64,000 bases of DNA from GCF_054482595.1 NZ_CM137008.1, one strand, 5' to 3'; counted from the first letter of the stretch, positions 19,686 through 61,988 are shown. The notes: a model not told the origin generated them from the sequence alone. Numbers and translations: made by a program.

Positions 19686-20621
19686 ATGTCGCAAAATCAA
19701 GAAATTAGCAAGAAAGAACAATACAACCTGAACAAATTACAAAAACGCCTGCGTCGTAACGTGGGCGAAGCCATTGCTGACTTCAATATGATTGAAGAAG
19801 GCGATCGCATCATGGTTTGCCTCTCCGGGGGTAAAGACAGCTATACCATGCTGGAGATTCTGCGCAATTTGCAGCAAAGCGCGCCAATCAATTTTTCGCT
19901 GGTGGCTGTTAACCTCGATCAAAAGCAACCGGGCTTCCCGGAACACGTTCTGCCCGAGTATCTTGAAAAGCTGGGCGTTGAGTACAAGATTGTTGAAGAG
20001 AACACTTACGGTATCGTGAAAGAGAAGATTCCAGAGGGCAAAACCACTTGCTCACTGTGTTCTCGGCTACGTCGCGGTATCCTTTATCGCACCGCAACGG
20101 AACTGGGGGCGACGAAGATCGCGTTGGGCCACCATCGTGACGATATCCTGCAAACGTTGTTCTTAAATATGTTCTACGGCGGCAAGATGAAAGGTATGCC
20201 TCCGAAACTGATGAGCGATGATGGCAAACATATTGTTATTCGTCCGCTGGCCTACTGCCGCGAGAAAGATATTCAGCGATTTGCCGATGCAAAAGCGTTC
20301 CCGATTATTCCGTGCAACCTGTGCGGTTCACAGCCTAACCTGCAACGTCAGGTGATTGCTGACATGTTGCGTGACTGGGATAAACGTTATCCAGGGCGTA
20401 TCGAGACGATGTTCAGCGCGATGCAGAATGTGGTGCCGTCACATCTGTGCGATACCAACCTGTTCGATTTCAAAGGCATCACCCACGGTTCTGAAGTGGT
20501 TAACGGGGGTGATCTGGCGTTTGATCGCGAAGAGATCCCACTACAACCGGCGGGCTGGCAGCCAGAAGAAGATGAAAATCAGTTGGATGAGTTACGGCTG
20601 AATGTGGTTGAAGTGAAATAA
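19686..20621 (+). CDS. ttcA: tRNA 2-thiocytidine(32) synthetase
   Basis: 311 aa; PP-loop SGGKDS; CxxC cysteine pairs. Confidence 0.95.
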
Positions 20622-22383: not shown

Positions 22384-22505
22384 AAAAAAAAGCCGACTCA
22401 TCAAAGTCGGCGTCGTACGAATCAATTGTGCTATGCAGTAATTCAAAAAAGGAAGTAAGACAATATGGAGCGCAACGCCCATCGCTTGACGTTGCATTCA
22501 CCTGC
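22384..22505 (-). ncRNA. fnrS: FnrS small RNA (FNR-activated)
   Basis: Reverse complement reads GCAGGTGAATGCAACGTCAAGCGATGGGCGTTGCGCTCCATATTGTC...GAGTCGGCTTTTTTTT, matching recalled FnrS incl. terminator; located between zntB and dbpA as in K-12. Confidence 0.85.
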
Positions 22506-25882: not shown

Positions 25883-25977
25883 ACCGGCGCAGAGGAGACA
25901 ATGCCGGATTTAAGACGCGGATGCACTGCTGTGTGTACTATAGAGTCTGGCGGATGTCGACAGACTCTATTTTTTTA
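25883..25977 (+). ncRNA. mcaS: McaS (IsrA) small RNA
   Basis: ACCGGCGCAGAGGAGACAATGCCGGATTTAAGACGCGGATGCACTGCTGTGTGTACT...CGACAGACTCTATTTTTTT matches recalled McaS; between smrA and abgR as in K-12. Confidence 0.8.
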
Positions 25978-25984
25978 TGCAGTT

Positions 25985-48031: not shown

Positions 48032-49030
48032 ATGTCCCCTACTATTTATGATATTGCCAGGGTTGCAGGCGTATCAAAATCCACCGTATCACGCGTGCTG
48101 AATAAGCAAACTAATATCTCCCCGGAAGCGCGCGAAAAAGTGTTACGGGCCATTGAAGAATTACAGTATCAGCCAAACAAGCTGGCCCGCGCGCTGACCT
48201 CTTCGGGTTTTGATGCCATTATGGTGATTTCTACCCGTTCGACCAAAACTACGGCGGGTAATCCGTTTTTCTCTGAAGTTTTGCATGCCATCACCGCCAA
48301 AGCTGAAGAGGAAGGTTTCGACGTGATATTGCAGACGTCGCACAATCCGGCAGAAGACTTACAAAAATGTGAAAGCAAAATTAAGCAGAAAATGATTAAA
48401 GGCATTATTATGCTAAGTTCGCCAGCGGATGAGTCATTTTTTGCCCAACTTGATAAATACGATATTCCTGTCGTGGTGATTGGCAAAGTTGAAGGTCAAT
48501 ATGCCCATGTTTATTCTGTCGATACCGATAATTTTGGCGACAGCATTGCGTTGACCGATGCATTAATTGAAAGTGGGCATCAAAATATTGCCTGCCTGCA
48601 TGCTCCGCTTGATGTCCATGTTTCGGTTGATCGCGTTAATGGCTATAAGCAAAGTCTGTCCGCGCATAATATTGCAGTGCGTGATAAATGGATTGTTGAC
48701 GGCGGTTATACCCATGAAACAGCACTGCAAGCAGCACGGCAATTATTAAGTCAGTCACCGTTGCCTGAGGCAGTGTTTGCCACTGACAGCCTGAAATTAA
48801 TGAGCATTTATCGTGCGGCGGCAGAGAAAAATATTGCTATTCCGCAGCAGTTAGCGGTGGTGGGTTATAGTAATGAAACGCTGTCGTTTATTTTAACGCC
48901 TGCACCAGGCGGCATCGATGTTCCGACGCAGGAGTTAGGTCAACAAAGCTGCGAGTTATTATTCCGCTTAATTTCTGGAAAACCGTCACCACAGAATATT
49001 ACCGTTGCCACGCATATGACGCTGAAATAA
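48032..49030 (+). CDS. ycjW: LacI-family transcriptional regulator
   Basis: 332 aa; N-terminal HTH ([21 protein letters not shown]). Confidence 0.9.
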
Positions 49031-49044
49031 ATACCAGCTACCTT

Positions 49045-49128
49045 GCCTGAATGCCGGATGCGATGCTAGCGCATCTTATCCGGCCTACATTTATAGATCG
49101 GATAAAGTACTCGCGCCGCATCCGGCAA
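49045..49128. repeat. REP/BIME elements between ycjW and ompG
   Basis: atgccggatgcg...cttatccggcctaca and gcgccgcatccggcaat match REP consensus in opposed orientations. Confidence 0.6.
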
Positions 49129-49140
49129 TTTAGCCCATTA

Positions 49141-50046
49141 TCAGAACGAGTAATTTACGCCGACACCTGCATAATGGAATTTATCGCTGTCGCCTTCGTC
49201 GTGATCCTGCCACTCAAACGCGTATTCCAGCGAAACGGAAAGACCATTCTGGAAATCATAACCGTAAAATAAACCCACACGGTTAAAATCATGGCCTTCA
49301 CGTTCGATATCATCCTGCCAGTCCCAGTTACTCCAGCGATCCAGCCCAATGCGCGTATACGGCGTCACCGAGTGGTTGCCGAGCGTCAGCGGCAAATAGG
49401 CGCGAATTTCTTGCGTAGAAAACTCACCGTTATTGCGGCTGTCGTCCATATTAAAGCCGCGCTCGAGATAATAGTTCACTCGCAAGGCAACCGTTTCGTT
49501 GAAGGTATATTGCAGGCCTGTTTCCGTTTCGACTCGGGTATCAGCGTAACCGGTCGTGTTCAGATCGTTGGCAAATTTATACATCGACAACCAACCGTTG
49601 AAACGTAAATCGTCAGTCAGTTTCACATCCCAGTCTGGCGCGATTTTCCAGCGCTGCATATTCGCCGTGTCTTTACCCGGTTCATCAACGTAGTGATAAC
49701 CATAATTACGGAAACCGCCGGTCAGGCCGAAACTGAAATCATCGTTTTCGAGGAACTGATAATGCACCTCCAGCTCCGGGCGATCAAACCACGTTCCACG
49801 TTTACCCGCGCTATAATCTACCGGCCCTTCCTGATAATAGGCCAGAGCAATTCTCCACGGCCCGTTGGCGGCATTAAAATAGACTGAAGGCTCCGCCAGC
49901 CCATCCATATCTTCGCCATAACCCTCGACGTTTTCTATTTCGTACATCGCGCCGATATTAAAGTGCCAGTCGTTCCTTTCCTCGGCCTGTGCGCAGGCCA
50001 TTCCCGCACACATCACCAGTGCGGTACAGGGTAATAACTTTTTCAT
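49141..50046 (-). CDS. ompG: Outer membrane porin OmpG
   Basis: 301 aa; signal peptide; beta-barrel with C-terminal F. Confidence 0.9.
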   Translation of the reverse strand: MKKLLPCTALVMCAGMACAQAEERNDWHFNIGAMYEIENVEGYGEDMDGLAEPSVYFNAANGPWRIALAYYQEGPVDYSAGKRGTWFDRPELEVHYQFLENDDFSFGLTGGFRNYGYHYVDEPGKDTANMQRWKIAPDWDVKLTDDLRFNGWLSMYKFANDLNTTGYADTRVETETGLQYTFNETVALRVNYYLERGFNMDDSRNNGEFSTQEIRAYLPLTLGNHSVTPYTRIGLDRWSNWDWQDDIEREGHDFNRVGLFYGYDFQNGLSVSLEYAFEWQDHDEGDSDKFHYAGVGVNYSF

Positions 50047-50090
50047 TATTGTTCCTTGTATTATTCTGGGGGAATGCCTTCCCCCTGTAT

Positions 50091-51173
50091 TTAGCGAATT
50101 GCTATTTCCGTTTCTGCATCAAAGAAATGACATTTCGTCATATCAAAATGAATAGTGATATTTTCTCCTGCATGATAATCATTTAACGCACCAGCACGGA
50201 CCACTAACTCGTGCCCCCCAACCGTGGTGTAGAGCATAAATTCCGCACCGGTTAATTCTGCCACGCTAATTTTGGCGGAAATGTTATTTTCCTCTTGCGC
50301 GTCCGGATGAATATCTTCCGGACGTATTCCCATCACGATGGGCTTATGCAAACTTCCCTGTGTTTTCAGAACCGCTAATTTCTCTTCGGGAATGGTTAAT
50401 TTAAGCGTTTCCGTAACGAATTTATCGCCATCGATCGTGCCACGAATAAAATTCATCGCCGGTGATCCAATAAATCCGGCAACAAACATATTCGCTGGTT
50501 GGTTATAAACCGTTTTCGGCGCACCAACTTGCTGAACAATCCCATCCTTCATAATCACAATCCGCGTCGCCATGGTCATCGCTTCGGTCTGATCGTGGGT
50601 CACGTAGATCATGGTGGTATTCAGCTTCTGGTGCAGCTTGCTGATCTCTGCGCGCATTTGCACGCGCAGCTTGGCATCAAGGTTAGAGAGCGGTTCATCC
50701 ATTAAAAACACGCCCGCTTCGCGCACAATCGCCCGCCCGAGCGCCACACGCTGGCGTTGCCCGCCGGAAAGCGCGCCCGGCTTGCGTTTCAGGTACTCAC
50801 GCAGGCCGAGAATTTGCGCCGCCCAGTTCACCCGCTCATCAATCACCTCTTTGGCGATTTTTTGCATCTTCAGGCCAAACGCCATGTTGTCGTAAACCGT
50901 CATATGCGGATACAACGCGTAGTTCTGGAACACCATCGCTATATTGCGTGCTTTGGCTGGAACGTCATTCATTCGTTTGCCGTCGATCAACAGATCGCCG
51001 CCGCTGATCTCCTCAAGCCCGGCAATCATGCGCAGGGTGGTCGACTTACCGCAGCCCGACGGGCCGACAAACACGATGAACTCTTTATCGGCAATTTCCA
51101 GGTTGAAGTCCTTCACCACATGCACCTGGTTATCGTAGATTTTTTGAATATGTTGTAACGAAAGCTGAGCCAT
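50091..51173 (-). CDS. ycjV: ABC transporter ATP-binding protein, intact
   Basis: 360 aa; Walker A GPSGCGKST, signature LSGGQRQR. Confidence 0.9.
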   Translation of the reverse strand: MAQLSLQHIQKIYDNQVHVVKDFNLEIADKEFIVFVGPSGCGKSTTLRMIAGLEEISGGDLLIDGKRMNDVPAKARNIAMVFQNYALYPHMTVYDNMAFGLKMQKIAKEVIDERVNWAAQILGLREYLKRKPGALSGGQRQRVALGRAIVREAGVFLMDEPLSNLDAKLRVQMRAEISKLHQKLNTTMIYVTHDQTEAMTMATRIVIMKDGIVQQVGAPKTVYNQPANMFVAGFIGSPAMNFIRGTIDGDKFVTETLKLTIPEEKLAVLKTQGSLHKPIVMGIRPEDIHPDAQEENNISAKISVAELTGAEFMLYTTVGGHELVVRAGALNDYHAGENITIHFDMTKCHFFDAETEIAIR

Positions 51174-51186
51174 GTTGATTCCTTTG

Positions 51187-51846
51187 CTATACGTTTTGCC
51201 AGAAGGCCGATAACCGCGGCCAGGTGAGTGATTCCGTTGAAGGCAACAGTAATTGCGCCCCGGTTAAGCCCGCGCCGATCCCCACCGAGCGCATACCGCT
51301 GGCGTTAATGGCGTCAATGCCCGCCTGCGCATCTTCAATGCCGATACATGCCTGCGGCGGCACGCCCAGCCCGGCACAGGCAGCGAGAAAGATTTCCGGA
51401 TCCGGTTTCGAGTTTTTAAGCTGGGAAGCATCCGCGCAGAAGGTGAAAAACTCGCGCAGCTCCAGCGCCGCTAAAATCGTCGGCGCATTCAGGGAGACGG
51501 AAGCCAGCCCTACCGGAATCTGCTGTGCACGGAGCTCTGCCAGCAAATTGCGAATACCGGGCAGCACAGCATTAACCGTCAGCTCGCGCAGTGAGTGGAC
51601 GTAAAGCAGATTTTTGCGATACGCCAGTTGCGCCCGCTCCTGCGGGTTAAAGTCGCCCTCTTTGCCCCCGTGTTGCAGAATGCGCCGCAGAGACTCATCG
51701 CGGCTGATCCCTTTTAGGGATTCGTTAAACTGCGCATCAATGCTGATGCCAATTTCAGCGGCAATCTGCTGCCACGCCAGGAAATGCAGATGCGCGGTAT
51801 CGGTGATTACACCATCCAGATCGAAAATTACCCCTTGCAGTTTCAT
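51187..51846 (-). CDS. ycjU: Beta-phosphoglucomutase (HAD family)
   Basis: 219 aa; HAD motif I in [10 protein letters not shown]. Confidence 0.9.
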
Positions 51847-54110
51847 TCACCCTCCTGATGCGTGGTAGCGGTCCCATTGAAGGGCAAAATAAAATCACCC
51901 AAACAGAAAACAGATTCTTCAGCCACGGATATAAGCTGACCGTTCAAACGCAGTGAAACGGGCGCAGAAGTTCGAATCGCAATACGCTGCGCGTCGAGAG
52001 TGACCTGTAATTCGCAGCCCTGCCAGAACAGAGGGAAAGACAACTGTTGCCACTGCTCAGGTAACGCCGGATTGAGATGCAATTCACCGTCACGCACGCT
52101 CACCCCGGCAAAACCCTGAATCGCCCCCAGCCAGATAGCGCCAGTTGCGGCAGCATGGATACCATCATCACAACTATGCGGATCAGCACCAAGATCGATT
52201 TCAGTCCCCTCGCGCCAGAACTGATAACTTTGGGTCAGCAGGCCACAGCGTGCGGCAACAATGCCGTGGATTGCTTTACTTAATGACGAGTCGTGAATAG
52301 TGCGCGGTTCATAAAATTGCAGATTGGCAAGACACGATGCCGCTGAGAACTGCTCCGGCAGCATGTAATTGAGCATCACCACATCTGCCTGCTTGAGGAT
52401 CTGCATCTCGTTCACTTCTGCGCGTGAATAATCCAGCAGTATGGTTTGCTTCCCCGCCGCCGCTTTGTATTTCGCCAGGTTAATCGCCGGCTTAGCCATA
52501 AACGAATCATCCTGCGGCAAAACGCCGTCGGGCTGAATTTCTGGCAGCCGCAGTTCTTTAAGGAACATTTCGGCACGATGAATAAACGCGTCGTCGCTAC
52601 AGCCAAACTGGCGGGCAATACTCAGCGCCTGCTGGACGTTGTAATACGCCATATAGCTGGTGAAGGCGTTATTATTGACATGTTCGGTATATTCGTCAGG
52701 CCCAATAACATCATGAATTTCCAGACGGTCGTTAACCCTCACCGCGCGGCTAATCCAGAACTTTGCAGTTTCCAGAAGTAGCGCCATGCCTTCATGCGCA
52801 ATGAAACTTTCATCCCCCGTGGTCTGCCAGTATTGAATAACCGCCCAGGCGATATCGGCCACCAGATGATGTTCCGCCTGCGCCGAGGCCACTTTTTGCC
52901 GCAGCCCGGTGCGAATGTTAATGGCGGCAAAAAGTGGCGTCTCTTCTTCGCCGCTGCGCGCGCTTTCCCACGGGAATAGCGCGCCCTGCCAGCCATTGCG
53001 TCGCGCTTTCTCCTGCGCGCCAGGCAAGTTGTGCCAGCGATAACGCAGTAAACTTCTGGCAATCGTCGGATCGCTAAACAGATGGAACGGCAGCAAAAAT
53101 ACTTCCGTATCCCAGAAAACGTGGCCTTTGTAGCCTTCGCCGGTTAAGCCTTTTGCCGCAATGCTGCTACGCTCGTCGTGAGCAGGCGTCATGATGCGCA
53201 GATGATAAAGCGCATAATCTAACGCTTGCTGATCGTGCGCATCGCCGCCGTTTACCGTGATACGACGTTTCTGCCACCACTGACGCCAGTTTTCTGTTGA
53301 TGCTGCAAGAAGTTGGTCGTAACTCTGCTGCGCGCACATTTCAAGCTGGCGAAGCGACGCGCTGCCCCACTCGTCTAAAACGGCTTGCCTGTCATCCCGC
53401 CAGTCGATCCACACCAGTTTTTGCAACGTCACTGTCTCGCCTGCATGAAGCTGCGCACTGGTATGTTGCTGCAAACGGCGCTCTTTGGCGGTATAGCATT
53501 GCTGCACATCACCGCTCACCATACAGCAACAGCTGATGGCCACATCACTGCGTCCATCCTGGGTGGTGTAGATCCCCTGCATCAGATGCTGACCAAACAC
53601 CCGCACCTGGGTTTCGTCGAGATGTTGGCGACCGTGGTTGGTTTGCGTGGCGTCGATACCTGTTGAAATCAGCACTGACGCGTCGGCGTCCAGTGGCGTA
53701 ATAGTGATTTCCAGCACAATGAGCGGCAGTTGGTCTGCCGAAACAAAGCGACGGCTGGCGATGGTGTAACCTGTGCCGTTGCTGGTACGCCAGACAACGC
53801 TACGGCGTAATTCTCCACTGGCAAAGTCAAGTTCACGCTGCCAGGCTTCGCGGGATAACGAGAAAACCTCACCATTTATGGCAATCTCCATCCCCAAGAT
53901 ATCAGGCAGGTTCACCAGTTCGTTGATTTCACCTTTTCCCGCCCGATGATACAGCCCCGCCAGATACATCCCTCGCGTCTGGCGCGTGTAATCTTCTTCA
54001 TGGCTGGCGCGAAGCCCAAGATAGCCGTTCCCCTGCGCCATCAGCGATGCATACTTGTTCAGGGTATGCTGGCTCAAATGGGGTTCTGATAACGTTACTG
54101 GCCTGGTCAT
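51843..54110 (-). CDS. ycjT: GH65 disaccharide phosphorylase (kojibiose phosphorylase-like)
   Basis: 755 aa; 4-nt overlaps with both neighbours. Confidence 0.9.
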
Positions 54111-55162
54111 AATTCCACACGCGTCCCTGTTTCTGCGGATTGATACAACGCCGCCACCAGTTGCTGGATGATGTACCCCTGCTCGGCGTCGGCTATCATC
54201 ACGGGCTTGCCCTGTACGTGATTGATAAAGGCTTCCATGCTGCGCAAATGGCGGTTGTCGTCTGCCATTTCCCGTTGCATCAGCGTCATTAATTCACCGT
54301 TGTTATCGGTGTAGATATGTGCTGGAAACAGCGTCGCACCGGCTTTATCACCACAAAAGCTGACGTTCATAATCGACTGTTCGCGGATGTTGAGTGCAAA
54401 TGACGTTTCCAGCCACAGGATGCCGCCGTTATGAAATTCAATGGTGCCAAACAGCGAATCTTCGACGCTGTAAGTTGCCGGATCCCACTCGCCAAATTGA
54501 CCACAGCTCTTTTGCGTGCCGATCTTTTGAAAGCTATGCGCATTCACGCTTTTCAACGCCGGAAAGCCCAGCACATACATCGCAGCATCCAGCATATGAA
54601 TGCCGATGTCGATCAGCGGGCCACCACCCTGCAGTTCTTTATTGGTAAAGACACCCCAGCCGGGAACGCCGCAGCGACGCAGGGCGCGGGCGGTGGTAAC
54701 GTAAATCTCTCCCAAAACGCCGTTGGTCACCTGTTCACGCAGCTGTTGCGTATCGAGCGCAAAACGATGGTGAAAGTCGTAGGCCAGCACCTTGCCCAGT
54801 TTGCGCGCGGTATCGCACATTTCCCGCGCCTGTTCTGGCGTCATGGCGGGCGGTTTTTCGCACATCACATGGCAGCCCGCTTCCAGTGCCATCAGGGTAT
54901 GTTCGTAATGAAAACGGTTAGGTGAGCAGACGCTAACCACATCAGGTTTCACCGCCAGCAGCATGGCCTGCGGATCGTCCCACACGGATGCATTCCCGTA
55001 TTTTTCTGCCAGCGCCTGCGCCTGGGAAAGGCGGCTGTCACAGACAGCCACCAGTTCCAGATCGTTGCGGGTGCAGTAGTACGAAGCATGAACCTTATCC
55101 GCCACCTGGCCTGCGCCTATTATCGCGACCCGCAGCGGAGAGCTTGTCATTGCACTTTTCAC
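54107..55162 (-). CDS. ycjS: Gfo/Idh/MocA-family oxidoreductase
   Basis: 351 aa; N-terminal Rossmann IIGAGQV. Confidence 0.9.
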   Translation of the reverse strand: MKSAMTSSPLRVAIIGAGQVADKVHASYYCTRNDLELVAVCDSRLSQAQALAEKYGNASVWDDPQAMLLAVKPDVVSVCSPNRFHYEHTLMALEAGCHVMCEKPPAMTPEQAREMCDTARKLGKVLAYDFHHRFALDTQQLREQVTNGVLGEIYVTTARALRRCGVPGWGVFTNKELQGGGPLIDIGIHMLDAAMYVLGFPALKSVNAHSFQKIGTQKSCGQFGEWDPATYSVEDSLFGTIEFHNGGILWLETSFALNIREQSIMNVSFCGDKAGATLFPAHIYTDNNGELMTLMQREMADDNRHLRSMEAFINHVQGKPVMIADAEQGYIIQQLVAALYQSAETGTRVEL

Positions 55163-55171
55163 AAAGACCTC

Positions 55172-55960
55172 TTAGCAGGTACGCAACCAGGCCAACGAAT
55201 CACGGTACGCCTGGGCAGGATCTTCCGCCCGGATACGCCCTTCGTACACTACATAGCCCTGATAGTTATCCGCGCGCAGCTGTTCAAACAGCGCGTGGAA
55301 ATCCAGGGTGCCGCTGCCCGGCTGGTAGCGATGGTTATCCGCAATATGCACATGACCGAGCAGGTCGCGGTTGTCATGCAGCGCCTGCGCCAGGTTATCT
55401 TCTTCGATATTCATGTGATAGAAATCGCCGATAATCTGTACATGTTTAAGATCGTTTTCGACGATGTAACGGCGGGCATCGGCGAGGGTGTTGATCATAT
55501 GATCCTGATAGCGGTTTAACGGTTCGAGATACACCACGGTTCCGGTACGCGCGGCGACCTGTTCAAGTACGCGCAGGGAATCACTCACCATTTTACGATC
55601 GCCGTTCAGGCTGCGCGGCGAGGTCATCGGCGGTAAGCGGAAGGTAAACATGCCCCACGCTGCCGGAACGACGATACCCTTACCCCCCACTTCTGCCAGC
55701 GCTTCGAGAATGCGTTCGATCTGCTTTAAGCCATTAAGACGACGCTCTTCAATAAAGTCACCAATCCAGCCGTCATAGCCACCGCAGGCGGTGGTCACCG
55801 GTAAACCGGTTTCTTTGATTGCTGCTTTGACTTCTTCGATGTTGTTGACCAGCAGTTTGCCGTCAATCTCAAAACCATCGAAGCCCATCTCTTTGATATA
55901 ACGAAATTTCTCCAGAATGTTTTCCGGAAAGAATGCCTGATTCTGTGTGCCTATTTTCAT
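55172..55960 (-). CDS. ycjR: Sugar phosphate isomerase/epimerase (TIM barrel)
   Basis: 262 aa. Confidence 0.9.
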   Translation of the reverse strand: MKIGTQNQAFFPENILEKFRYIKEMGFDGFEIDGKLLVNNIEEVKAAIKETGLPVTTACGGYDGWIGDFIEERRLNGLKQIERILEALAEVGGKGIVVPAAWGMFTFRLPPMTSPRSLNGDRKMVSDSLRVLEQVAARTGTVVYLEPLNRYQDHMINTLADARRYIVENDLKHVQIIGDFYHMNIEEDNLAQALHDNRDLLGHVHIADNHRYQPGSGTLDFHALFEQLRADNYQGYVVYEGRIRAEDPAQAYRDSLAWLRTC

Positions 55961-55977
55961 TTTTTCATTCCTTTGAA

Positions 55978-57030
55978 TTAAAACGTAACGCCCATTTTGA
56001 TGCTCTGTTCCGGATGCTGATCGACATACTGCATGTAGCTTTCCGGGCTATTGGCAAAGGTCACTACCGGGTCGATTAAATCTTCGCAATTGAGATAACC
56101 GTTCATCAGCAGTTCCCAGCAGGTTTCTTCAATACGCTTACGGCTCCAGCGCGGATAATCCGGGTTCGGTTCGCTGCACGCGCGGGAGAAAACAATTTTG
56201 GCGTTATTGAAATGCGCTTCGCGTCCGAGGTTAAAACCTTCAGCAAATGGTTTGGCAAACGCGACATAGGAGATGGTGCCACCGTAGGCCAGACCGCGGA
56301 ACGCCGATTGCAGCGCGTCGGCATAGCCGCTGGTTTCGATAATCACATCGGCACCCTGCTTGCCGGTCAGCGTTTTGATCTCTTTGCCTACGTCAGTACC
56401 AATGGGGTTAAGGCAGAAATCCGCGCCGTGGCGACGGGCAATATCACAGCGATGGGCGATAGGATCGACGCCAATCACCACCGACGCGCCAGCGCGTTTC
56501 GCCAGTTGAATGGCAATTTGACCAATCGCGCCAAGCCCTACCACCACAACAAAATCACCCACGCGCACGTTGGCATCGCGCACGCCGCTCATGGCAAACT
56601 GCGCCGGGTCGTAACAAACGGCGTTTTTCCACGAGCTGCCTTCCGGCATTTTGCGCAGCTTGTAGTTATTCACCGCGTTAATGATGACCGTCTCGGAGAG
56701 CGGGCCGTAGCCGCATACGCTGTCGTCCACCGCGTAGTCGGTAACGTCGCTGCCGCACTCGATAATGTCGCCAACCACCATGTTTCCAAGCTGGAATTTG
56801 CCAAACTCAATGCCGCGCGGCGCATCTGCCGGACGCGGAGTGAACATCTGCCATTCGCCGTTAAAGTCTTCATCGATAAACGGGCTGGCGGCGCGGAAGT
56901 CGACCACTTCCGTTCCGTGTTTCGGTGCGCCGAAACGCACGCGGATCTTCACTTCATTGGCTAAAATCGCCCGATCTTCATACTCAACCAGCGCAGCAAC
57001 ACGCGGTGCTGTGGCTACTAACTTTTTCAT
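55978..57030 (-). CDS. ycjQ: Zn-dependent alcohol/sugar dehydrogenase
   Basis: 350 aa; GLGAIGQ NAD-binding motif. Confidence 0.9.
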   Translation of the reverse strand: MKKLVATAPRVAALVEYEDRAILANEVKIRVRFGAPKHGTEVVDFRAASPFIDEDFNGEWQMFTPRPADAPRGIEFGKFQLGNMVVGDIIECGSDVTDYAVDDSVCGYGPLSETVIINAVNNYKLRKMPEGSSWKNAVCYDPAQFAMSGVRDANVRVGDFVVVVGLGAIGQIAIQLAKRAGASVVIGVDPIAHRCDIARRHGADFCLNPIGTDVGKEIKTLTGKQGADVIIETSGYADALQSAFRGLAYGGTISYVAFAKPFAEGFNLGREAHFNNAKIVFSRACSEPNPDYPRWSRKRIEETCWELLMNGYLNCEDLIDPVVTFANSPESYMQYVDQHPEQSIKMGVTF

Positions 57031-57060
57031 TTAAAACTCCTTGTAAAGAAACTGGCCGCT

Positions 57061-57903
57061 TTAGCCCTTCACGCCACCGGCGGTCAAACCACTCTTAATA
57101 AAACGTTCCGAAAGCGCATACATAATCACCACCGGCAATGCGGTCACCAGTGAGGCCGCCATCATCCGTCCCCAGATGTAATCTGGCGTACTGAACAGCG
57201 CGTTCAGGCCCACCGGTAAGGTGAAATTGCTGGCGCTGGAGAGGAAGATCGACGCAAACAGATAGTCGTTCCACGCCACCATAAAGCAGTAGACGAACAC
57301 GGATATCAGCCCGGACATCGCCAACGGCACGGTGATGCGGAAGATAATTTGCAGACGGTTGAGGCCATCCATCATCGCCGCTTCTTCGATCTCATCGGGG
57401 ATGGTGTCGAAGTAGCTTTTCAGCATAAACACGGCGGTGGGCAGAGTTTGCGTCACCATGGTGATGATCAGCGCCATCTCAGTGTCGTAAATGCCCAGCG
57501 CGGTGATGATTTTGAACAGCGGCACCACCAGCAAAATGCCAGAGAACATATACACCGTGTAAAAGCTGGCATTGATGGTCATCCGACCTTTAAAGCGCAG
57601 GCGGGAAAGCGCGTAAGCCCCAAGAATGCCGAGGAATACCGCCACCACGGATGAAACCACCGACACCACCAGACTGTTACGGAAGTAGTCGACAAACGGG
57701 AAAATCATCGGGTTAAAAATGTCGACGTAATGCTCCAGCGTCCACTGCTGCGGCAGCAGCGTAGGATGCAGTGAGATCGCCTCTTTCGCGCCCTTGAACG
57801 AGGTCATCAGCATCACAAAAAATGGAAACAGCGTGATGATGAGAAACAGCGCCAGCCCGCAGTAAAAACCGATGCGACTGAGTGTGCGTTTATTTGTTGC
57901 CAT
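57061..57903 (-). CDS. ycjP: ABC sugar transporter permease
   Basis: 280 aa; polytopic. Confidence 0.9.
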   Translation of the reverse strand: MATNKRTLSRIGFYCGLALFLIITLFPFFVMLMTSFKGAKEAISLHPTLLPQQWTLEHYVDIFNPMIFPFVDYFRNSLVVSVVSSVVAVFLGILGAYALSRLRFKGRMTINASFYTVYMFSGILLVVPLFKIITALGIYDTEMALIITMVTQTLPTAVFMLKSYFDTIPDEIEEAAMMDGLNRLQIIFRITVPLAMSGLISVFVYCFMVAWNDYLFASIFLSSASNFTLPVGLNALFSTPDYIWGRMMAASLVTALPVVIMYALSERFIKSGLTAGGVKG

Positions 57904-58771
57904 TGAGGTTCACCCGTTTCCTGGTCAGCAGAATGACAGCGAAAATAATGATGAAGAGCACCACCGAGATCGCCGCCGCTTTTCCTAAATCATTAAAGGC
58001 AAAGGCGGTTTTGTAGAGATATACACCGAGAATATCGACCTTGGTCGTCAGCAAATAAACATCCGCGAACATGTAGAACATCCAGATGGTGCGCAGGGTC
58101 ACCACCGTCGCCAGGACCGGCATAATCGCGGGCAGCGTGACGATACGAAACCGTTGCCAGGCATTAGCGCCATCCATCTCTGCCGCTTCGTACAGCGATT
58201 TGTCGATGGTCTGCAAAATCGCCAGAAACGAGATAAAGGCATACGGGAAGTAGCGCCAGATGGCGAACAGCACCACCAGCACAAAGCTACTGCCCGGATT
58301 ATCGAACCACAGCGGTGCCTGCTCATAGAGATGCAGAAGATCGACGCCGAGGTAGTTCACAATGCCGTAGCCGTTGTTGAACATGTATTTCCAGGCAAAC
58401 ACCAGCGAAATGGACGGCGTTACGTAGGAGAGGATCACCAGCGAACGCGCGGTTTTGCGCAGACGGAACTCGCGGTTGAAAAACATCGCCACTGCCAGCC
58501 CGAGCACGGTGCTGCCCGCCACCACCAGCGCGGTATACCAGACCGTCATCCACAGCGAGTGCCAGAAGCCGGGATCGGAGAGGATACGCACATAGTTACT
58601 CACCCCAACAAAGGTTGACTCGATGTTGGGATTGAGCGGCAGACGTAAAAAACTGATTTCGATATTCGACACCATTGGCCAGGCAACCAGACCACCCAGC
58701 AGTAATAAGCTGGGCGCGAGAAGCAGCAGCGCAAAGGGCATATCGGAACGACCTGAAAAAAGCCTGTTCAT
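57890..58771 (-). CDS. ycjO: ABC sugar transporter permease
   Basis: 293 aa; 14-nt overlap with ycjP. Confidence 0.9.
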   Translation of the reverse strand: MNRLFSGRSDMPFALLLLAPSLLLLGGLVAWPMVSNIEISFLRLPLNPNIESTFVGVSNYVRILSDPGFWHSLWMTVWYTALVVAGSTVLGLAVAMFFNREFRLRKTARSLVILSYVTPSISLVFAWKYMFNNGYGIVNYLGVDLLHLYEQAPLWFDNPGSSFVLVVLFAIWRYFPYAFISFLAILQTIDKSLYEAAEMDGANAWQRFRIVTLPAIMPVLATVVTLRTIWMFYMFADVYLLTTKVDILGVYLYKTAFAFNDLGKAAAISVVLFIIIFAVILLTRKRVNLNGNK

Positions 58772-58791
58772 TGCGGATTCCTGTCCTGGGT

Positions 58792-60084
58792 TTAGTGCTG
58801 TTCGATCAGTTCATCCAGCTTTTTCTGGCTCGCTTGCAGCGTGCCAGGGAGATCGGCTTTACCCACGGTGACGTTATGCACCATGGAGCTCACCACGCCA
58901 GAACCCGTCACATCACCCATGCGGGTAAAGTTTTTATCCCCTACTGCACCAAAGACCTGAATATTTGGCAGTTCACCGATTAGCTGATTCGGTAGTTCAC
59001 CCAGCGCCTTAATAACGTCGTTGTCTTTCCAGGTGGCGGTAGTGACAACCGCTTTATTCACCGGCAGCGCAGCACCTGGCGACATCATCACCCAGTCGGC
59101 AATGTTGTCTGCCTGCTCCATAAAGGTGACAAATTTTTCAGCTGCTTCCGTCTCTTCGGTCTTTTGCCCGGCGGTAATGGTCAGCGAGGTCAACATGCCG
59201 TAGACCGCAGAGTTTTTCTCGGTTGGCACCACGAAACCGACGTTTTTCGGGTCGCCTTCTTTAATCACAGCCGGAAGGATATAGGTGGAGTAAATCGCCA
59301 TCGGCGCGGTGCCGTTCATAAAGGCGTCTTTCACTTCCATGATGTCGTTAGAACCCGGCATAGTGTTGGCAGCAAGGTCGCGGTAATAGGTCAGTGCCTG
59401 CATCATCTCTGGTGTATCAAGGGTGATTTTGCCTTCGGCGTTAAAGACGTTAGCCTGGTTGGATAACGCAAACTGGGAGAAGGATTGTTCCGTCAACACG
59501 CTTTCTGCTGTAGGCAGCGCAATGCCGTATTTTTTATTCGCCGGGTCATTCAGTTTCTGTGCAACGTCCAGCAGCTGTTGCCAGTTTTTCGGCTCCTCAA
59601 GCCCCGCTTTTGCCAGCACATCTTTGCGATACCAGATACCGCCAATCCAGGCGCTGACAGGAACACCGGTCCATGCGCTACCATCTTCGGTACGCACAAT
59701 ACGCAGTACGCCATCGTAAAACGCGCCTTCACCAACGTTGCTGATGACTGTGGCAACCGCTTTGCGATCGATAAGCTGCTCTTTGTCCATCACTTTGGCG
59801 TAGTCATGGCTGGTTTCGATCACTTCCGGCAGCGAACCGCTACGTGAAAGAGTAATGACTTTAGTGTTATAGGCATCTTCTTCCACGGGCACTTGCTTAA
59901 CGGTGATGCCAGGGTTTTCTTTTTCAAAACGGGCAATCAATTTACTGATAACGGCCTGGCGCTCCTGCTCCACCGAAGAATGCATAAATTCGATGGATAC
60001 ATTCGTTTTATTTTCTTCTTTACAGCCTGAAATCAGGGCGCAGGAAACCAGTGCTGATAACAGCACGATTTTTGATTTAATCAT
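58792..60084 (-). CDS. ycjN: Periplasmic sugar-binding protein, lipoprotein
   Basis: 430 aa; lipobox ISGC. Confidence 0.9.
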   Translation of the reverse strand: MIKSKIVLLSALVSCALISGCKEENKTNVSIEFMHSSVEQERQAVISKLIARFEKENPGITVKQVPVEEDAYNTKVITLSRSGSLPEVIETSHDYAKVMDKEQLIDRKAVATVISNVGEGAFYDGVLRIVRTEDGSAWTGVPVSAWIGGIWYRKDVLAKAGLEEPKNWQQLLDVAQKLNDPANKKYGIALPTAESVLTEQSFSQFALSNQANVFNAEGKITLDTPEMMQALTYYRDLAANTMPGSNDIMEVKDAFMNGTAPMAIYSTYILPAVIKEGDPKNVGFVVPTEKNSAVYGMLTSLTITAGQKTEETEAAEKFVTFMEQADNIADWVMMSPGAALPVNKAVVTTATWKDNDVIKALGELPNQLIGELPNIQVFGAVGDKNFTRMGDVTGSGVVSSMVHNVTVGKADLPGTLQASQKKLDELIEQH

Positions 60085-60097
60085 GAGATGTTCCTTT

Positions 60098-61777
60098 TTA
60101 TTTAATCCACATAACCTGCCAGGGGCGCAGCGTTATTTCATTACCCAATATATCAACTTCACTAATCAGATCCCGACCATGCAGATTAGTAATATTTACA
60201 TGCTGAATATTTTTACTGACATTAAACAATCCAGTCAGACAATTACCATCAGCGTTACTTCTTTGAATACGCATTACGGATGAATTAATCGTATCAATGG
60301 TAAAATTATTATCCGGATGAAACTCGTTATGGCTGCGACGAAGTGTAATTAAACGCGACAACTCATGATATACCGCATGCCTTAATGTAGCTTCATCGTT
60401 CAGTTCTCGGGTTATCTCTTTACTGTGATATTTTTTACGGTTAATCGCACGGTTATATCCGAGTTTTTCGACACCTGCGTAATCATTACGCGAGCCAAGA
60501 ATACTTTGAATATATATCGCTGGCACACCGGGGAAACTTAACAAAATCGCATGGGCGAGAATAAACCTGGCGCAACGTTCTTCATCGCTACTCTCACGGC
60601 GGCTTAACGCATCCATATAGGTCACATTTATTTCATACGGACTGCGTGTACCGTCGGGATTATTTTTCCAGTTTACTAATGCACCTTCCTGCTGTAACGC
60701 CTCGACCAGCTCTAATATTTCGCTTTCAGGCAACAAGCCCCGTAGCGGGTTTAGCCCGATGCCATCGTGAGAGGCGAGGAAGTTAAACCAGGTGGTGTTG
60801 CTGGAAGGTAGTGTCAGGTTTTGCGCCCACGCACAAAGCGCCTCAACGTTCTGTTTTTGCACCGCATGCAGCACCAGTGGCGGCAGCGAGAACTGGTACA
60901 CCATATGTGCTTCGTCATCGCCTGCGCCAAAGTAAGCAATGTTGTCTTTATGCGGAACATTGGTCTCGGTAATGATCACTGTACCTGGCGCAACGTTATC
61001 AATAATCGACCGTAACAGTTTGATAATCAGATGTGTTTTTTCCAGATGGATGCAGCTTGTTCCCGGCTCTTTCCACATAAAGCCAACGGCATCCAGGCGG
61101 ACATACTCAGCATCTTTCGCAAGGTAACAGAGTAAAACATCCACCATCGCCAGCAACACTTCAGGGCTACGGTAATTCAGGTCAATTTGATCGTCACTAA
61201 AGGTGGTCCATAAATGGCGCGTTGAATGATCGCGCATCTGGAATGGCGTTAATAACGGTAACGCACGCGGGCGAGTGACGGCGCTGAGATCGGTTTGCGG
61301 GTCAACGGCAATAAAAAAATCTTCAAAACCTGGATGCTGTTGTAAATAGTTTTTAAACCATTCACTTTTTGCCGACATATGGTTGCAGACAAAATCAAAC
61401 ATTAAATGACTGCATTCACCGAGTTGCTGAATATCCTGCCACTCCCCCGCTTCACTGGCGACCTGATGATAATCAATTACCGAAAAGCCATCATCAGATG
61501 ACCATGGATAAAACGGCAACAAATGAACATGTGAAAAAATGCTTTGCAGCCATTGATGGTAAAACTGATTAAATGTGGGTAATGGTTTTAAATCATTGCT
61601 GTGAAATTGATCGGCATAGGTAATTAACACGACATCACTTTCATCCCAGTGTTTTTTACGTCGCTGTGTAATTAATCGTTTCGCACTCTCAAGACGCGTT
61701 ACAAGTTTCTGTAAATGAGTTGCGGTAAATGTTCCACCGTAGATTTCGTCCAGGTAATCCGTAATTTTCTGTTTCAT
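60098..61777 (-). CDS. ycjM: GH13 sucrose-phosphorylase-like glycoside phosphorylase
   Basis: ORF track 60098..61804; start at MKQKITDYLDEIYGG gives 559 aa. Confidence 0.9.
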   Translation of the reverse strand: MKQKITDYLDEIYGGTFTATHLQKLVTRLESAKRLITQRRKKHWDESDVVLITYADQFHSNDLKPLPTFNQFYHQWLQSIFSHVHLLPFYPWSSDDGFSVIDYHQVASEAGEWQDIQQLGECSHLMFDFVCNHMSAKSEWFKNYLQQHPGFEDFFIAVDPQTDLSAVTRPRALPLLTPFQMRDHSTRHLWTTFSDDQIDLNYRSPEVLLAMVDVLLCYLAKDAEYVRLDAVGFMWKEPGTSCIHLEKTHLIIKLLRSIIDNVAPGTVIITETNVPHKDNIAYFGAGDDEAHMVYQFSLPPLVLHAVQKQNVEALCAWAQNLTLPSSNTTWFNFLASHDGIGLNPLRGLLPESEILELVEALQQEGALVNWKNNPDGTRSPYEINVTYMDALSRRESSDEERCARFILAHAILLSFPGVPAIYIQSILGSRNDYAGVEKLGYNRAINRKKYHSKEITRELNDEATLRHAVYHELSRLITLRRSHNEFHPDNNFTIDTINSSVMRIQRSNADGNCLTGLFNVSKNIQHVNITNLHGRDLISEVDILGNEITLRPWQVMWIK

Positions 61778-61988
61778 GTTGCCTTTCCGTGGTAGCGGTC
61801 CCATGAAACGAGAGACTACTCCGCAGAAAATAAACTGTCAATTGAGCACAAGGGTTTTAGTCACGCAGGAAATCATTTTTTACCAGGGAAAAAGCGTATT
61901 TGTGAGCTGACGCAAATAATCTATGGGGATGTAAATAAGGTGTGACAGAAAAAAAACGGCGCATAAGCGCCGCTCATGGTGAATTCTT

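Follow-up and report, generated by a model that had tools for sequence, protein, structure and literature searches.

The window, a 64,000-nt stretch of an Escherichia coli chromosome (GCF_054482595.1, NZ_CM137008.1), contains eleven intact, co-directional open reading frames (ORFs) that fill the minus strand from position 49141 (the ompG stop) to 61777 (the ycjM start). Their order is ycjM-N-O-P-Q-R-S-T-U-V-ompG, with pspE upstream and the convergent ycjW on the other side. Many E. coli chromosomes carry this 12,637-nt segment at 100% identity, and the operon segment was found in 5040 of 5426 complete genomes. Gene order and lengths equal those in the RefSeq annotation of an identical strain and are collinear with K-12; among the ten genes of equal length, nucleotide identity to K-12 ranges from 96.5 to 99.8%, with 0-23 amino-acid differences per gene. 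The complete eleven-gene operon described in the first-pass annotation is borne out by the ORF map and by RefSeq and K-12 annotation, and the gene identities given there are right, with family and structure matches obtained for all genes and RefSeq names, NCBIfam and PDB in agreement. The locus is real, correctly named and already characterized: the operon, its enzymes, porin structure, repressor, operators and in-vitro inducer have all been published. An Rfam scan of the whole window returned no RNA family inside or adjoining the operon.

Enzymes, importer and porin

The ycjM gene (60098..61777; 559 aa) was identified from its ORF and RefSeq name as encoding a GH13 sucrose-phosphorylase-like protein (glucosylglycerate phosphorylase). 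Its best NCBIfam match is the sucrose phosphorylase model TIGR03852, at 218.9 bits under a cut-off of 334.4 bits, and its PDB matches are sucrose or glucosylglycerol phosphorylases; by sequence, the predicted fold is sucrose-phosphorylase-like and the protein is not a sucrose phosphorylase equivalog. It shares 557 of its 559 residues with K-12 YcjM, there named glucosylglycerate phosphorylase (GH13 subfamily 18). Further along, ycjQ (55978..57030; 350 aa) encodes a member of the zinc-dependent alcohol-dehydrogenase family, annotated in K-12 as D-guloside 3-dehydrogenase, and ycjR (55172..55960; 262 aa) a sugar-phosphate isomerase/epimerase TIM-barrel protein, annotated as 3-dehydro-D-guloside 4-epimerase. 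The product of ycjS (54107..55162; 351 aa, GTG start) is assigned by ORF, annotation and NCBIfam to the Gfo/Idh/MocA oxidoreductases (D-glucoside 3-dehydrogenase). The activity names of YcjQ, YcjR, YcjS and YcjM are those of the K-12 record.

The GH65 kojibiose phosphorylase gene ycjT (51843..54110; 755 aa) was recognized by its RefSeq name and by full-length homology to the kojibiose phosphorylase of PDB 3WIQ (E = 1.6e-114). The GPDE ('igpdeyteh') and HxSSLS stretches, which we take to be the GH65 catalytic-acid and phosphate-site stretches, align to 3WIQ with identical core residues. Against NCBIfam, YcjT matched NF010380 (GH65 domain) at 381.5 bits, below the cut-off of 838, and no kojibiose-phosphorylase model. 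Because the score stays under that cut-off, membership rests on 97% identity (23 amino-acid differences) to the characterized K-12 enzyme, which appears among the characterized kojibiose phosphorylases in PMC11442529. The adjoining ycjU (pgmB; 51187..51846; 219 aa) encodes a beta-phosphoglucomutase of the HAD superfamily, which scores 272.2 bits with the equivalog model TIGR01990 (cut-off 189.4) and differs from K-12 at 5 residues.

The ABC importer is encoded by four genes, ycjN, ycjO, ycjP and the ATPase gene ycjV. The first of these (58792..60084; 430 aa), identified by its ORF and lipobox, encodes a lipoprotein substrate-binding protein, whose N-terminus MIKSKIVLLSALVSCALISGC bears the lipobox Cys21, the lipidation site reported in PMC11543891. 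Annotation and NCBIfam identify ycjO (57890..58771; 293 aa) as a MalF/UgpA-like permease with 0 amino-acid differences from K-12, and ycjP (57061..57903; 280 aa) as a MalG-like permease whose protein is likewise identical. The last gene, ompG (49141..50046), encodes a 301-aa precursor of a monomeric 14-strand outer-membrane porin with 0 amino-acid differences from K-12. NCBIfam gave it no model match at E <= 1e-10, and its identity was settled through PDB, in which 2IWV, 2F1C and 2JQY align with residues 22-301 (E ~ 1e-198).

Gene junctions, boundaries and operators

Overlaps of 4-14 nt had been reported between the genes, and they occur at three of the ten junctions (ycjO/ycjP, 14 nt; ycjS/ycjT and ycjT/ycjU, 4 nt each); at the other seven, the genes stand apart by 9-44 nt, with gaps of 13, 20, 30, 17, 9, 13 and 44 nt in operon order. 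The widest gap, between ycjV and ompG, holds a GC-rich hairpin, GGGGGAAGGCATTCCCCC (50068..50085), which lacks a T tract on the operon strand. Upstream, the unit is limited by the intrinsic terminator of pspE (61954..61975, minus strand; 9-bp stem, T8). On the other side, the LacI-family repressor gene ycjW (48032..49030, plus strand; 332 aa by RefSeq and K-12 annotation) does not lie divergently, as the first-pass annotation had it: it is tail-to-tail with ompG, the two stops being 110 nt apart, and is ~12.7 kb away from the ycjM promoter. Its product differs from that of K-12 at three residues (A210S, E219K and K233Q). The 110-nt spacer between the two stops (49031..49140) contains the palindromes GCCGGATGCGGCG ... 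CGCATCCGGCA, presumably REP-like from their resemblance to the REP consensus.

A palindrome search upstream of ycjM recovered the 14-mer TGGGACCGCTACCA, an imperfect palindrome with a central CG, in exactly two occurrences, where none is expected by chance (100 shuffles). The first copy (O1; 61790..61803, minus strand) lies 12 nt 5' of the ycjM ATG, and the second (O2; 51863..51876, minus strand), an exact repeat (17-mer with flanks), lies within the ycjT 3' end, 16 nt ahead of the ycjU ATG. Both 14-mers are identical in K-12, with differing bases flanking O2. They are taken as the published YcjW operators because their positions agree with the ChIP-seq description, in which YcjW peaks mark two sites, one of them "between ycjT and ycjU" (PMC6599011). 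According to the same study, deletion of ycjW strongly derepresses ycjM, ycjT, ycjU and ompG, and YcjW is freed from DNA in vitro by 0.5-1 mM kojibiose, not by sucrose or trehalose (PMC6599011).

A scan for sigma-70 consensus promoters listed nothing 5' of ycjM or ycjU. Reading by hand gave a putative sigma-70 promoter for the operon (61813..61841, minus strand), with TTGACA at 61841-61836, a 17-nt spacer and a possible -10 element, TAGTCT, at 61818-61813 that matches only three of six positions, which is why the scan passed over it. An internal promoter was also sought 5' of ycjU, and none convincing was found there. Candidate roles for the second operator are a roadblock, control of an internal promoter, and looping.

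The ycjV reading frame and its frameshift in K-12

The ycjV gene (50091..51173, minus strand) encodes an intact MalK/MsmX-type ABC ATPase of 360 aa. In this family, one ATPase can serve several sugar importers or be exchanged among them. The intact Walker A and signature motifs that had been reported for YcjV are indeed present, within a full nucleotide-binding set: Walker A GPSGCGKS (residues 37-44), Q-loop VFQ (81-83), signature LSGGQ (135-139), Walker B VFLMDE (155-160), D-loop SNLD (163-166) and H-loop THD (192-194). The protein scores 484.3 bits with NF008653 (cut-off 432), and MsmX (PDB 6YIR; E = 8.8e-150) matches it over its whole length (residues 1-360 of YcjV, 1-365 of MsmX), so the C-terminal regulatory domain is complete. 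Full-length E. coli YcjV (WP_000057985.1) retains ATPase activity, and neither it nor MalK was able to substitute for MsmX (PMC7658222).

The first-pass annotation was also correct in calling ycjV a pseudogene in K-12. Alignment with NC_000913.3 places the lesion in a G6 homopolymer (50214..50219, minus strand; gene nt 955-960), where a 1-nt deletion leaves G5 in K-12, so that the reading frame slips at codon 319 and the final ~41 residues are lost; apart from this indel, the two alleles differ by 20 substitutions. K-12 annotation carries the result as the pseudogene pair ycjV and ymjB, and the lesion goes unmentioned in the operon papers PMC6599011, PMC11543891, PMC13053599 and PMC7658222, in which the word "pseudogene" has 0 occurrences.

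Among 4995 complete E. coli genomes bearing the segment, an exact 71-mer with the intact G6 tract was found in 4379 (~88% or more), and the G5 allele in 371 complete genomes. In a spread sample of G5 carriers (n=60), nearly all were K-12 laboratory derivatives. Intact ycjV is the normal wild-type allele, and the frameshift is essentially a lesion of the K-12 lineage. The idea that an intact ycjV is an unusual feature was rejected on these counts.

A strict confinement of G5 to K-12 was rejected as well: the allele is mostly so distributed, and it is also carried by STEC 2014C-3051, with a haplotype like that of the window, and by 08-00022, with a K-12-like haplotype. A few further large-genome strains have G5 too; in all of these carriers, either real recurrence or homopolymer sequencing error may lie behind the allele. 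Since G5 is seen on a non-K-12 haplotype, the G6 tract may be a recurrent slippage switch; this is a weaker variant of the proposal, taken up below, that the K-12 frameshift makes the operon seem cryptic.

Operon function and comparison with known systems

We put at about 93% the probability that what lies here is the ycjMNOPQRSTUV-ompG operon of E. coli in its wild-type form, together with the repressor gene ycjW, operating as follows. YcjW bound at the two identical 14-bp operators, in the ycjM leader and just 5' of ycjU, would keep the operon silent until displaced by a signal in the form of an alpha-1,2-glucoside, a part played in vitro by kojibiose. Oligosaccharides or glycosides would then enter through OmpG in the outer membrane, and the substrate would pass from the lipoprotein YcjN to the YcjO/YcjP permease, with a YcjV dimer as the predicted power source. 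In the cytoplasm, YcjQ, YcjR and YcjS would convert D-gulosides to D-glucosides via 3-keto intermediates, YcjT would phosphorolyse kojibiose-type alpha-1,2-glucosides to glucose and beta-glucose-1-phosphate, YcjU would turn the latter into glucose-6-phosphate, and YcjM would phosphorolyse glucosylglycerate. The sequence itself establishes the genes and their integrity, the motifs, the operators, the likeness to K-12, and the K-12 frameshift together with its rarity. The enzyme activities, the repression, the effector role of kojibiose and the ATPase activity of full-length YcjV are taken from the literature or annotation; we infer the identity of the imported molecule and the requirement of intact YcjV for import.

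The first of these inferences has a tentative competitor, in which the locus would serve not the catabolism of alpha-glucosides (kojibiose or glucosylglycerate) but the uptake and conversion of another glycoside, possibly plant- or microbe-derived (e.g., a D-guloside), and the phosphorylases would act only on downstream or side products. None of the sugars tried, kojibiose, glucose and maltose among them, stabilized YcjN, and a plant-derived ligand has been speculated (PMC11543891); YcjQRS correspond to guloside-to-glucoside conversion in the K-12 annotation; and K-12 does not grow with kojibiose as sole carbon source, and the authors doubt that kojibiose is the natural inducer and suggest a kojibiose derivative instead (PMC6599011). 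However, YcjW release is specific to kojibiose as against sucrose and trehalose, and YcjT, listed as characterized in PMC11442529, forms together with YcjU a complete route from kojibiose to glucose-6-phosphate. The earlier statement that the native substrate is only partly established is in line with this literature, in which YcjN responds to no sugar tried (PMC11543891) and kojibiose releases YcjW in vitro but K-12 fails to grow on it (PMC6599011).

The requirement for intact YcjV faces a rather doubtful alternative, namely that ycjV integrity is physiologically irrelevant, either because the truncated K-12 protein (ending at ~residue 322) still drives YcjOP, because MalK or UgpC substitutes for it, or because repression is too tight for the ATPase allele ever to count; the contrast with K-12 implied by a "functional uptake step" would on this view be empty. 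Only ~41 of 360 residues are lost, in the C-terminal regulatory domain, and the catalytic motifs are all spared; the poor growth of K-12 on kojibiose is not improved by deletion of ycjW (PMC6599011); and the sharing or exchange of ATPases between importers, which can occur in this family, is the theme of PMC7658222. On the other hand, of the 4995 genomes bearing the segment, no fewer than 4379 keep the full-length allele, with G5 nearly confined to K-12 derivatives, which fits purifying selection on the C-terminus, and the C-terminal strands are conserved as far as B. subtilis MsmX. In addition, the failure of YcjV and MalK to replace MsmX indicates that exchange is not universal (PMC7658222).

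An opposite and unlikely proposal would make the non-growth of K-12 on kojibiose, and the "cryptic" status of the operon, an artefact of the ycjV frameshift, with intact-allele isolates importing and growing on the true substrate; if so, the native substrate could be found by using an intact-ycjV strain or by repairing the MG1655 G-run. An assembly or sequencing artefact in a truly frameshifted strain is scarcely credible: a one-base difference in a G6 run is a classic site of long-read miscalls, but the G6 71-mer recurs in 4379 independent complete genomes, many strains sequenced independently match the 12.6-kb region at 100% identity, and the resulting YcjV C-terminus aligns with MsmX to the last residue.

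For the wild-type operon preferred here, the intact ATPase carries little weight as a discovery, the operon being published and the allele common. It does call for caution, given that operon physiology has been studied in K-12, whose ATPase gene is truncated: a failure to grow or to take up a sugar there may not extend to natural E. coli, and the search for the native substrate belongs in an intact-ycjV strain or in K-12 after repair.

The closest known counterpart is K-12 MG1655 itself (b1309-b1320), which has the same eleven genes and regulator, equal in length, arranged and oriented alike and with matching flanks (pspE upstream; ycjW-ycjX downstream), and differs in its G5 ycjV, annotated as the ycjV and ymjB pseudogenes, where the window has G6 and an intact 360-aa frame. 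Kojibiose clusters of Thermoanaerobacter brockii, Caldicellulosiruptor saccharolyticus (3WIQ) and Pyrococcus sp. ST04 share a GH65 phosphorylase, a beta-phosphoglucomutase and an adjoining ABC sugar importer, whereas the E. coli cluster has YcjM, YcjQRS and a porin in addition; E. coli YcjT is described in PMC11442529 as the only characterized kojibiose phosphorylase inactive on longer alpha-1,2-oligoglucans. MsmX of Bacillus subtilis (6YIR), a multitask sugar-importer ATPase, is the closest solved structure to YcjV and has the same motifs, whereas YcjV is encoded within its own importer operon and could not stand in for MsmX (PMC7658222). The maltose system of E. coli (MalEFGK2 and LamB) is built on the same plan as the ycj locus. 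Both pair a channel for sugars in the outer membrane with a periplasmic binding protein (structural subcluster D-I) and two permeases of the MalF/MalG type; in both, the ATPase is of MalK type, with a regulatory domain at its C-terminus, and a glucoside phosphorylase is present in the cytoplasm. The ycj locus differs in its porin, since OmpG is monomeric and non-specific, with 14 strands, and LamB a trimer; its binding protein carries a lipid anchor, its regulator is a repressor of LacI type in contrast to the activator MalT, and its phosphorylases belong to GH65 and GH13_18, giving beta- and alpha-glucose-1-phosphate. Unlike the maltose system, the ycj locus also includes three sugar oxidoreductase/epimerase genes.

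Organization and gene content of the ycj operon

The window comes from an Escherichia coli chromosome. The operon comprises eleven uninterrupted open reading frames on the minus strand, running from 61777 down to 49141, the annotated ycjM start and ompG stop, so the span claimed in the first-pass annotation stands. The genes, each supported by an open reading frame together with RefSeq and K-12 annotation, are ycjM (60098-61777), ycjN (58792-60084), ycjO (57890-58771), ycjP (57061-57903), ycjQ (55978-57030), ycjR (55172-55960), ycjS (54107-55162), ycjT (51843-54110), ycjU/pgmB (51187-51846), ycjV (50091-51173) and ompG (49141-50046). An identical strain annotated in RefSeq and K-12 MG1655 both show this gene order and these gene lengths. 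The overlaps of 4-14 nt that had been described between neighboring genes are found at three of the ten junctions (ycjO/P, 14 nt; ycjS/T and ycjT/U, 4 nt each), the other seven having gaps of 9 to 44 nt. The regulator gene ycjW (48032-49030, plus strand; open reading frame and RefSeq annotation), which encodes a LacI family protein, had been called divergent; it instead converges on ompG, with the two stop codons 110 nt apart, which leaves roughly 12.7 kb between ycjW and the ycjM promoter. The palindromes in the ycjW-ompG spacer are presumably REP-like. Between ycjV and ompG, the 44-nt spacer contains a GC-rich hairpin with a perfect 7-bp stem (GGGGGAA GGCA TTCCCCC, 50068-50085). This hairpin lacks a T tract on the operon strand and may act as an ompG attenuator or in mRNA processing or stability.

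Two glycoside phosphorylases are encoded. YcjM matches a sucrose phosphorylase model below its curated cut-off as well as GH13 sucrose/glucosylglycerol phosphorylase structures. Its K-12 counterpart, with 2 differences in 559 residues, carries the annotation glucosylglycerate phosphorylase. YcjT aligns with a kojibiose phosphorylase of solved structure (3WIQ, E = 1.6e-114) and keeps the GPDE and SSLS stretches, and YcjU scores above the beta-phosphoglucomutase equivalog cut-off. YcjQ belongs to the Zn-ADH family and YcjS to the Gfo/Idh/MocA family (annotated in K-12 as D-guloside 3-dehydrogenase and D-glucoside 3-dehydrogenase, respectively), while YcjR matches sugar epimerase/isomerase family models and is annotated in K-12 as 3-dehydro-D-guloside 4-epimerase. 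Among the transport components, YcjO and YcjP are MalF/MalG-type permeases, YcjN carries a lipobox with Cys21, the experimentally established lipidation site (PMC11543891), and OmpG, identical in sequence to its K-12 counterpart, matches solved OmpG barrels over residues 22-301.

The ycjV ATPase and its alleles

YcjV (360 aa) contains all nucleotide-binding motifs, scores above the UgpC-subfamily cut-off and aligns over its full length with MsmX (PDB 6YIR); in vitro, the full-length E. coli protein is an active ATPase (PMC7658222). The earlier statement that ycjV is a pseudogene in K-12 is correct, since comparison with the K-12 allele, 1 nt shorter, revealed that a run of six Gs (G6; gene nt 955-960, window 50214-50219) is reduced to five (G5), shifting the frame at codon 319 and introducing a stop three codons further on. 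The last ~41 residues of K-12 YcjV fall in a fragment annotated as ymjB.

The intact allele is not unusual. An exact G6 match to a 71-nt query was obtained in 4379 of the 4995 genomes holding the segment, and the G5 allele was detected in 371 genomes with a 45-nt query able to seed on that allele only. In a spread sample of 60 G5 genomes, nearly all could be recognized as K-12 derivatives from their name, source or chromosome size (MG1655, W3110, C600, DH5alpha, J53, MC4100, XL1-Blue and others), together with a few larger genomes (95-3192, OkiPb01703/01710 and PJ-T13). Two non-K-12 cases, 2014C-3051 and 08-00022, are annotated as "frameshifted" (positions 582-1663 of their ycjV-region records, L003 and L004). 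In 2014C-3051, the deletion lies on a ycjV haplotype one substitution from that of the window and is thus independent of K-12, reflecting either recurrent slippage or an assembly or homopolymer sequencing error.

Operators and a putative ycjM promoter

The palindrome search proposed for the region upstream of ycjM yielded TGGGACCGCTACCA, an imperfectly palindromic sequence centered on CG (operator O1; 61790-61803, 12 nt upstream of the ycjM ATG). An identical 14-mer, O2, lies within the end of ycjT (51863-51876), 16 nt upstream of the ycjU ATG, and the exact repeat extends to 17 nt with flanks; no third exact copy of the 14-mer was found, and 100 shuffles gave 0. Gel-shift assays have demonstrated binding of YcjW to these operators, ycjW deletion strongly derepresses ycjM, ycjT, ycjU and ompG, and the protein is freed from DNA by kojibiose, not by sucrose or trehalose (PMC6599011). 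The O2/ycjU ribosome-binding-site flank (51847-51862) reads CACGCATCAGGAGGGTGA in the window versus CAAACATCAGGAGGATGA in K-12, whereas the O2 14-bp core is the same in both. Such changed flanks around an unchanged core fit a 14-bp core that would be the constrained unit.

A plausible ycjM promoter, TTGACA-17-TAGTCT (61841-61813), was read by eye from the sequence, and would put the start of transcription a short way upstream of O1; it was not among the calls of a consensus promoter scan. The pspE terminator (61954-61975) forms the upstream bound of the ycj unit. An in-frame ATG at 61804 would lengthen ycjM by nine codons to 568 aa, the extension (61778-61804, minus strand) overlapping O1; the annotated start at 61777 is preceded, 6 nt upstream, by a Shine-Dalgarno-like GGAAAGG.

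Proposed pathway and comparison with K-12

In the best-supported model, an alpha-1,2-glucoside signal would lead to derepression, the substrate would enter through OmpG, lipidated YcjN would capture it for import by YcjOP-YcjV2, YcjQRS would turn guloside into glucoside, and phosphorolysis would proceed through YcjT and then YcjU, and also through YcjM. The transported substrate is its weak link: kojibiose and other sugars tried did not stabilize YcjN (PMC11543891), and kojibiose failed to support growth of K-12 when it was the only carbon source, its role as the natural inducer being doubted by the authors of that work (PMC6599011). The operon-related papers PMC6599011, PMC11543891, PMC13053599 and PMC7658222 do not mention the pseudogene status of K-12 ycjV. 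The lesion could therefore confound growth tests, although with a low probability, and may equally be without effect, because it leaves every catalytic motif of YcjV in place.

Among 5426 complete E. coli genomes, 5040 matched the operon (at least 80% covered in 4943 of these), many with 100% identity across its 12,637 nt. In the same collection, 386 genomes gave no megablast match, six matches fell on records labeled as plasmids, and strain 88COLEC carries ISVsa5 and IS3 insertions within the operon.

Elsewhere in the window, the 23-kb cryptic prophage Rac of K-12 (NC_000913.3 1411899-1434958, at ttcA) is absent, its flanking sequences being directly joined at 19693-19735 (99.0% and 98.8% identity). 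The small RNAs FnrS (22388-22505, minus), MicC (17457-17577, minus) and McaS (25883-25978, plus), all above Rfam gathering thresholds, follow the K-12 order.

Relative to K-12, ycjQ, ycjT and ycjU (within 51187-57030) each diverge by about 3.5%, whereas ycjM, ycjP and ycjS diverge by at most 0.6%; YcjT has 23 amino-acid substitutions, among them the non-conservative E393L and W521R. Such mosaic divergence across 51187-57030 versus 57061-61777 suggests past recombination inside the operon. What separates the locus from K-12 is ordinary variation between alleles, and the locus is the reference operon in its wild-type form rather than a variant of it.
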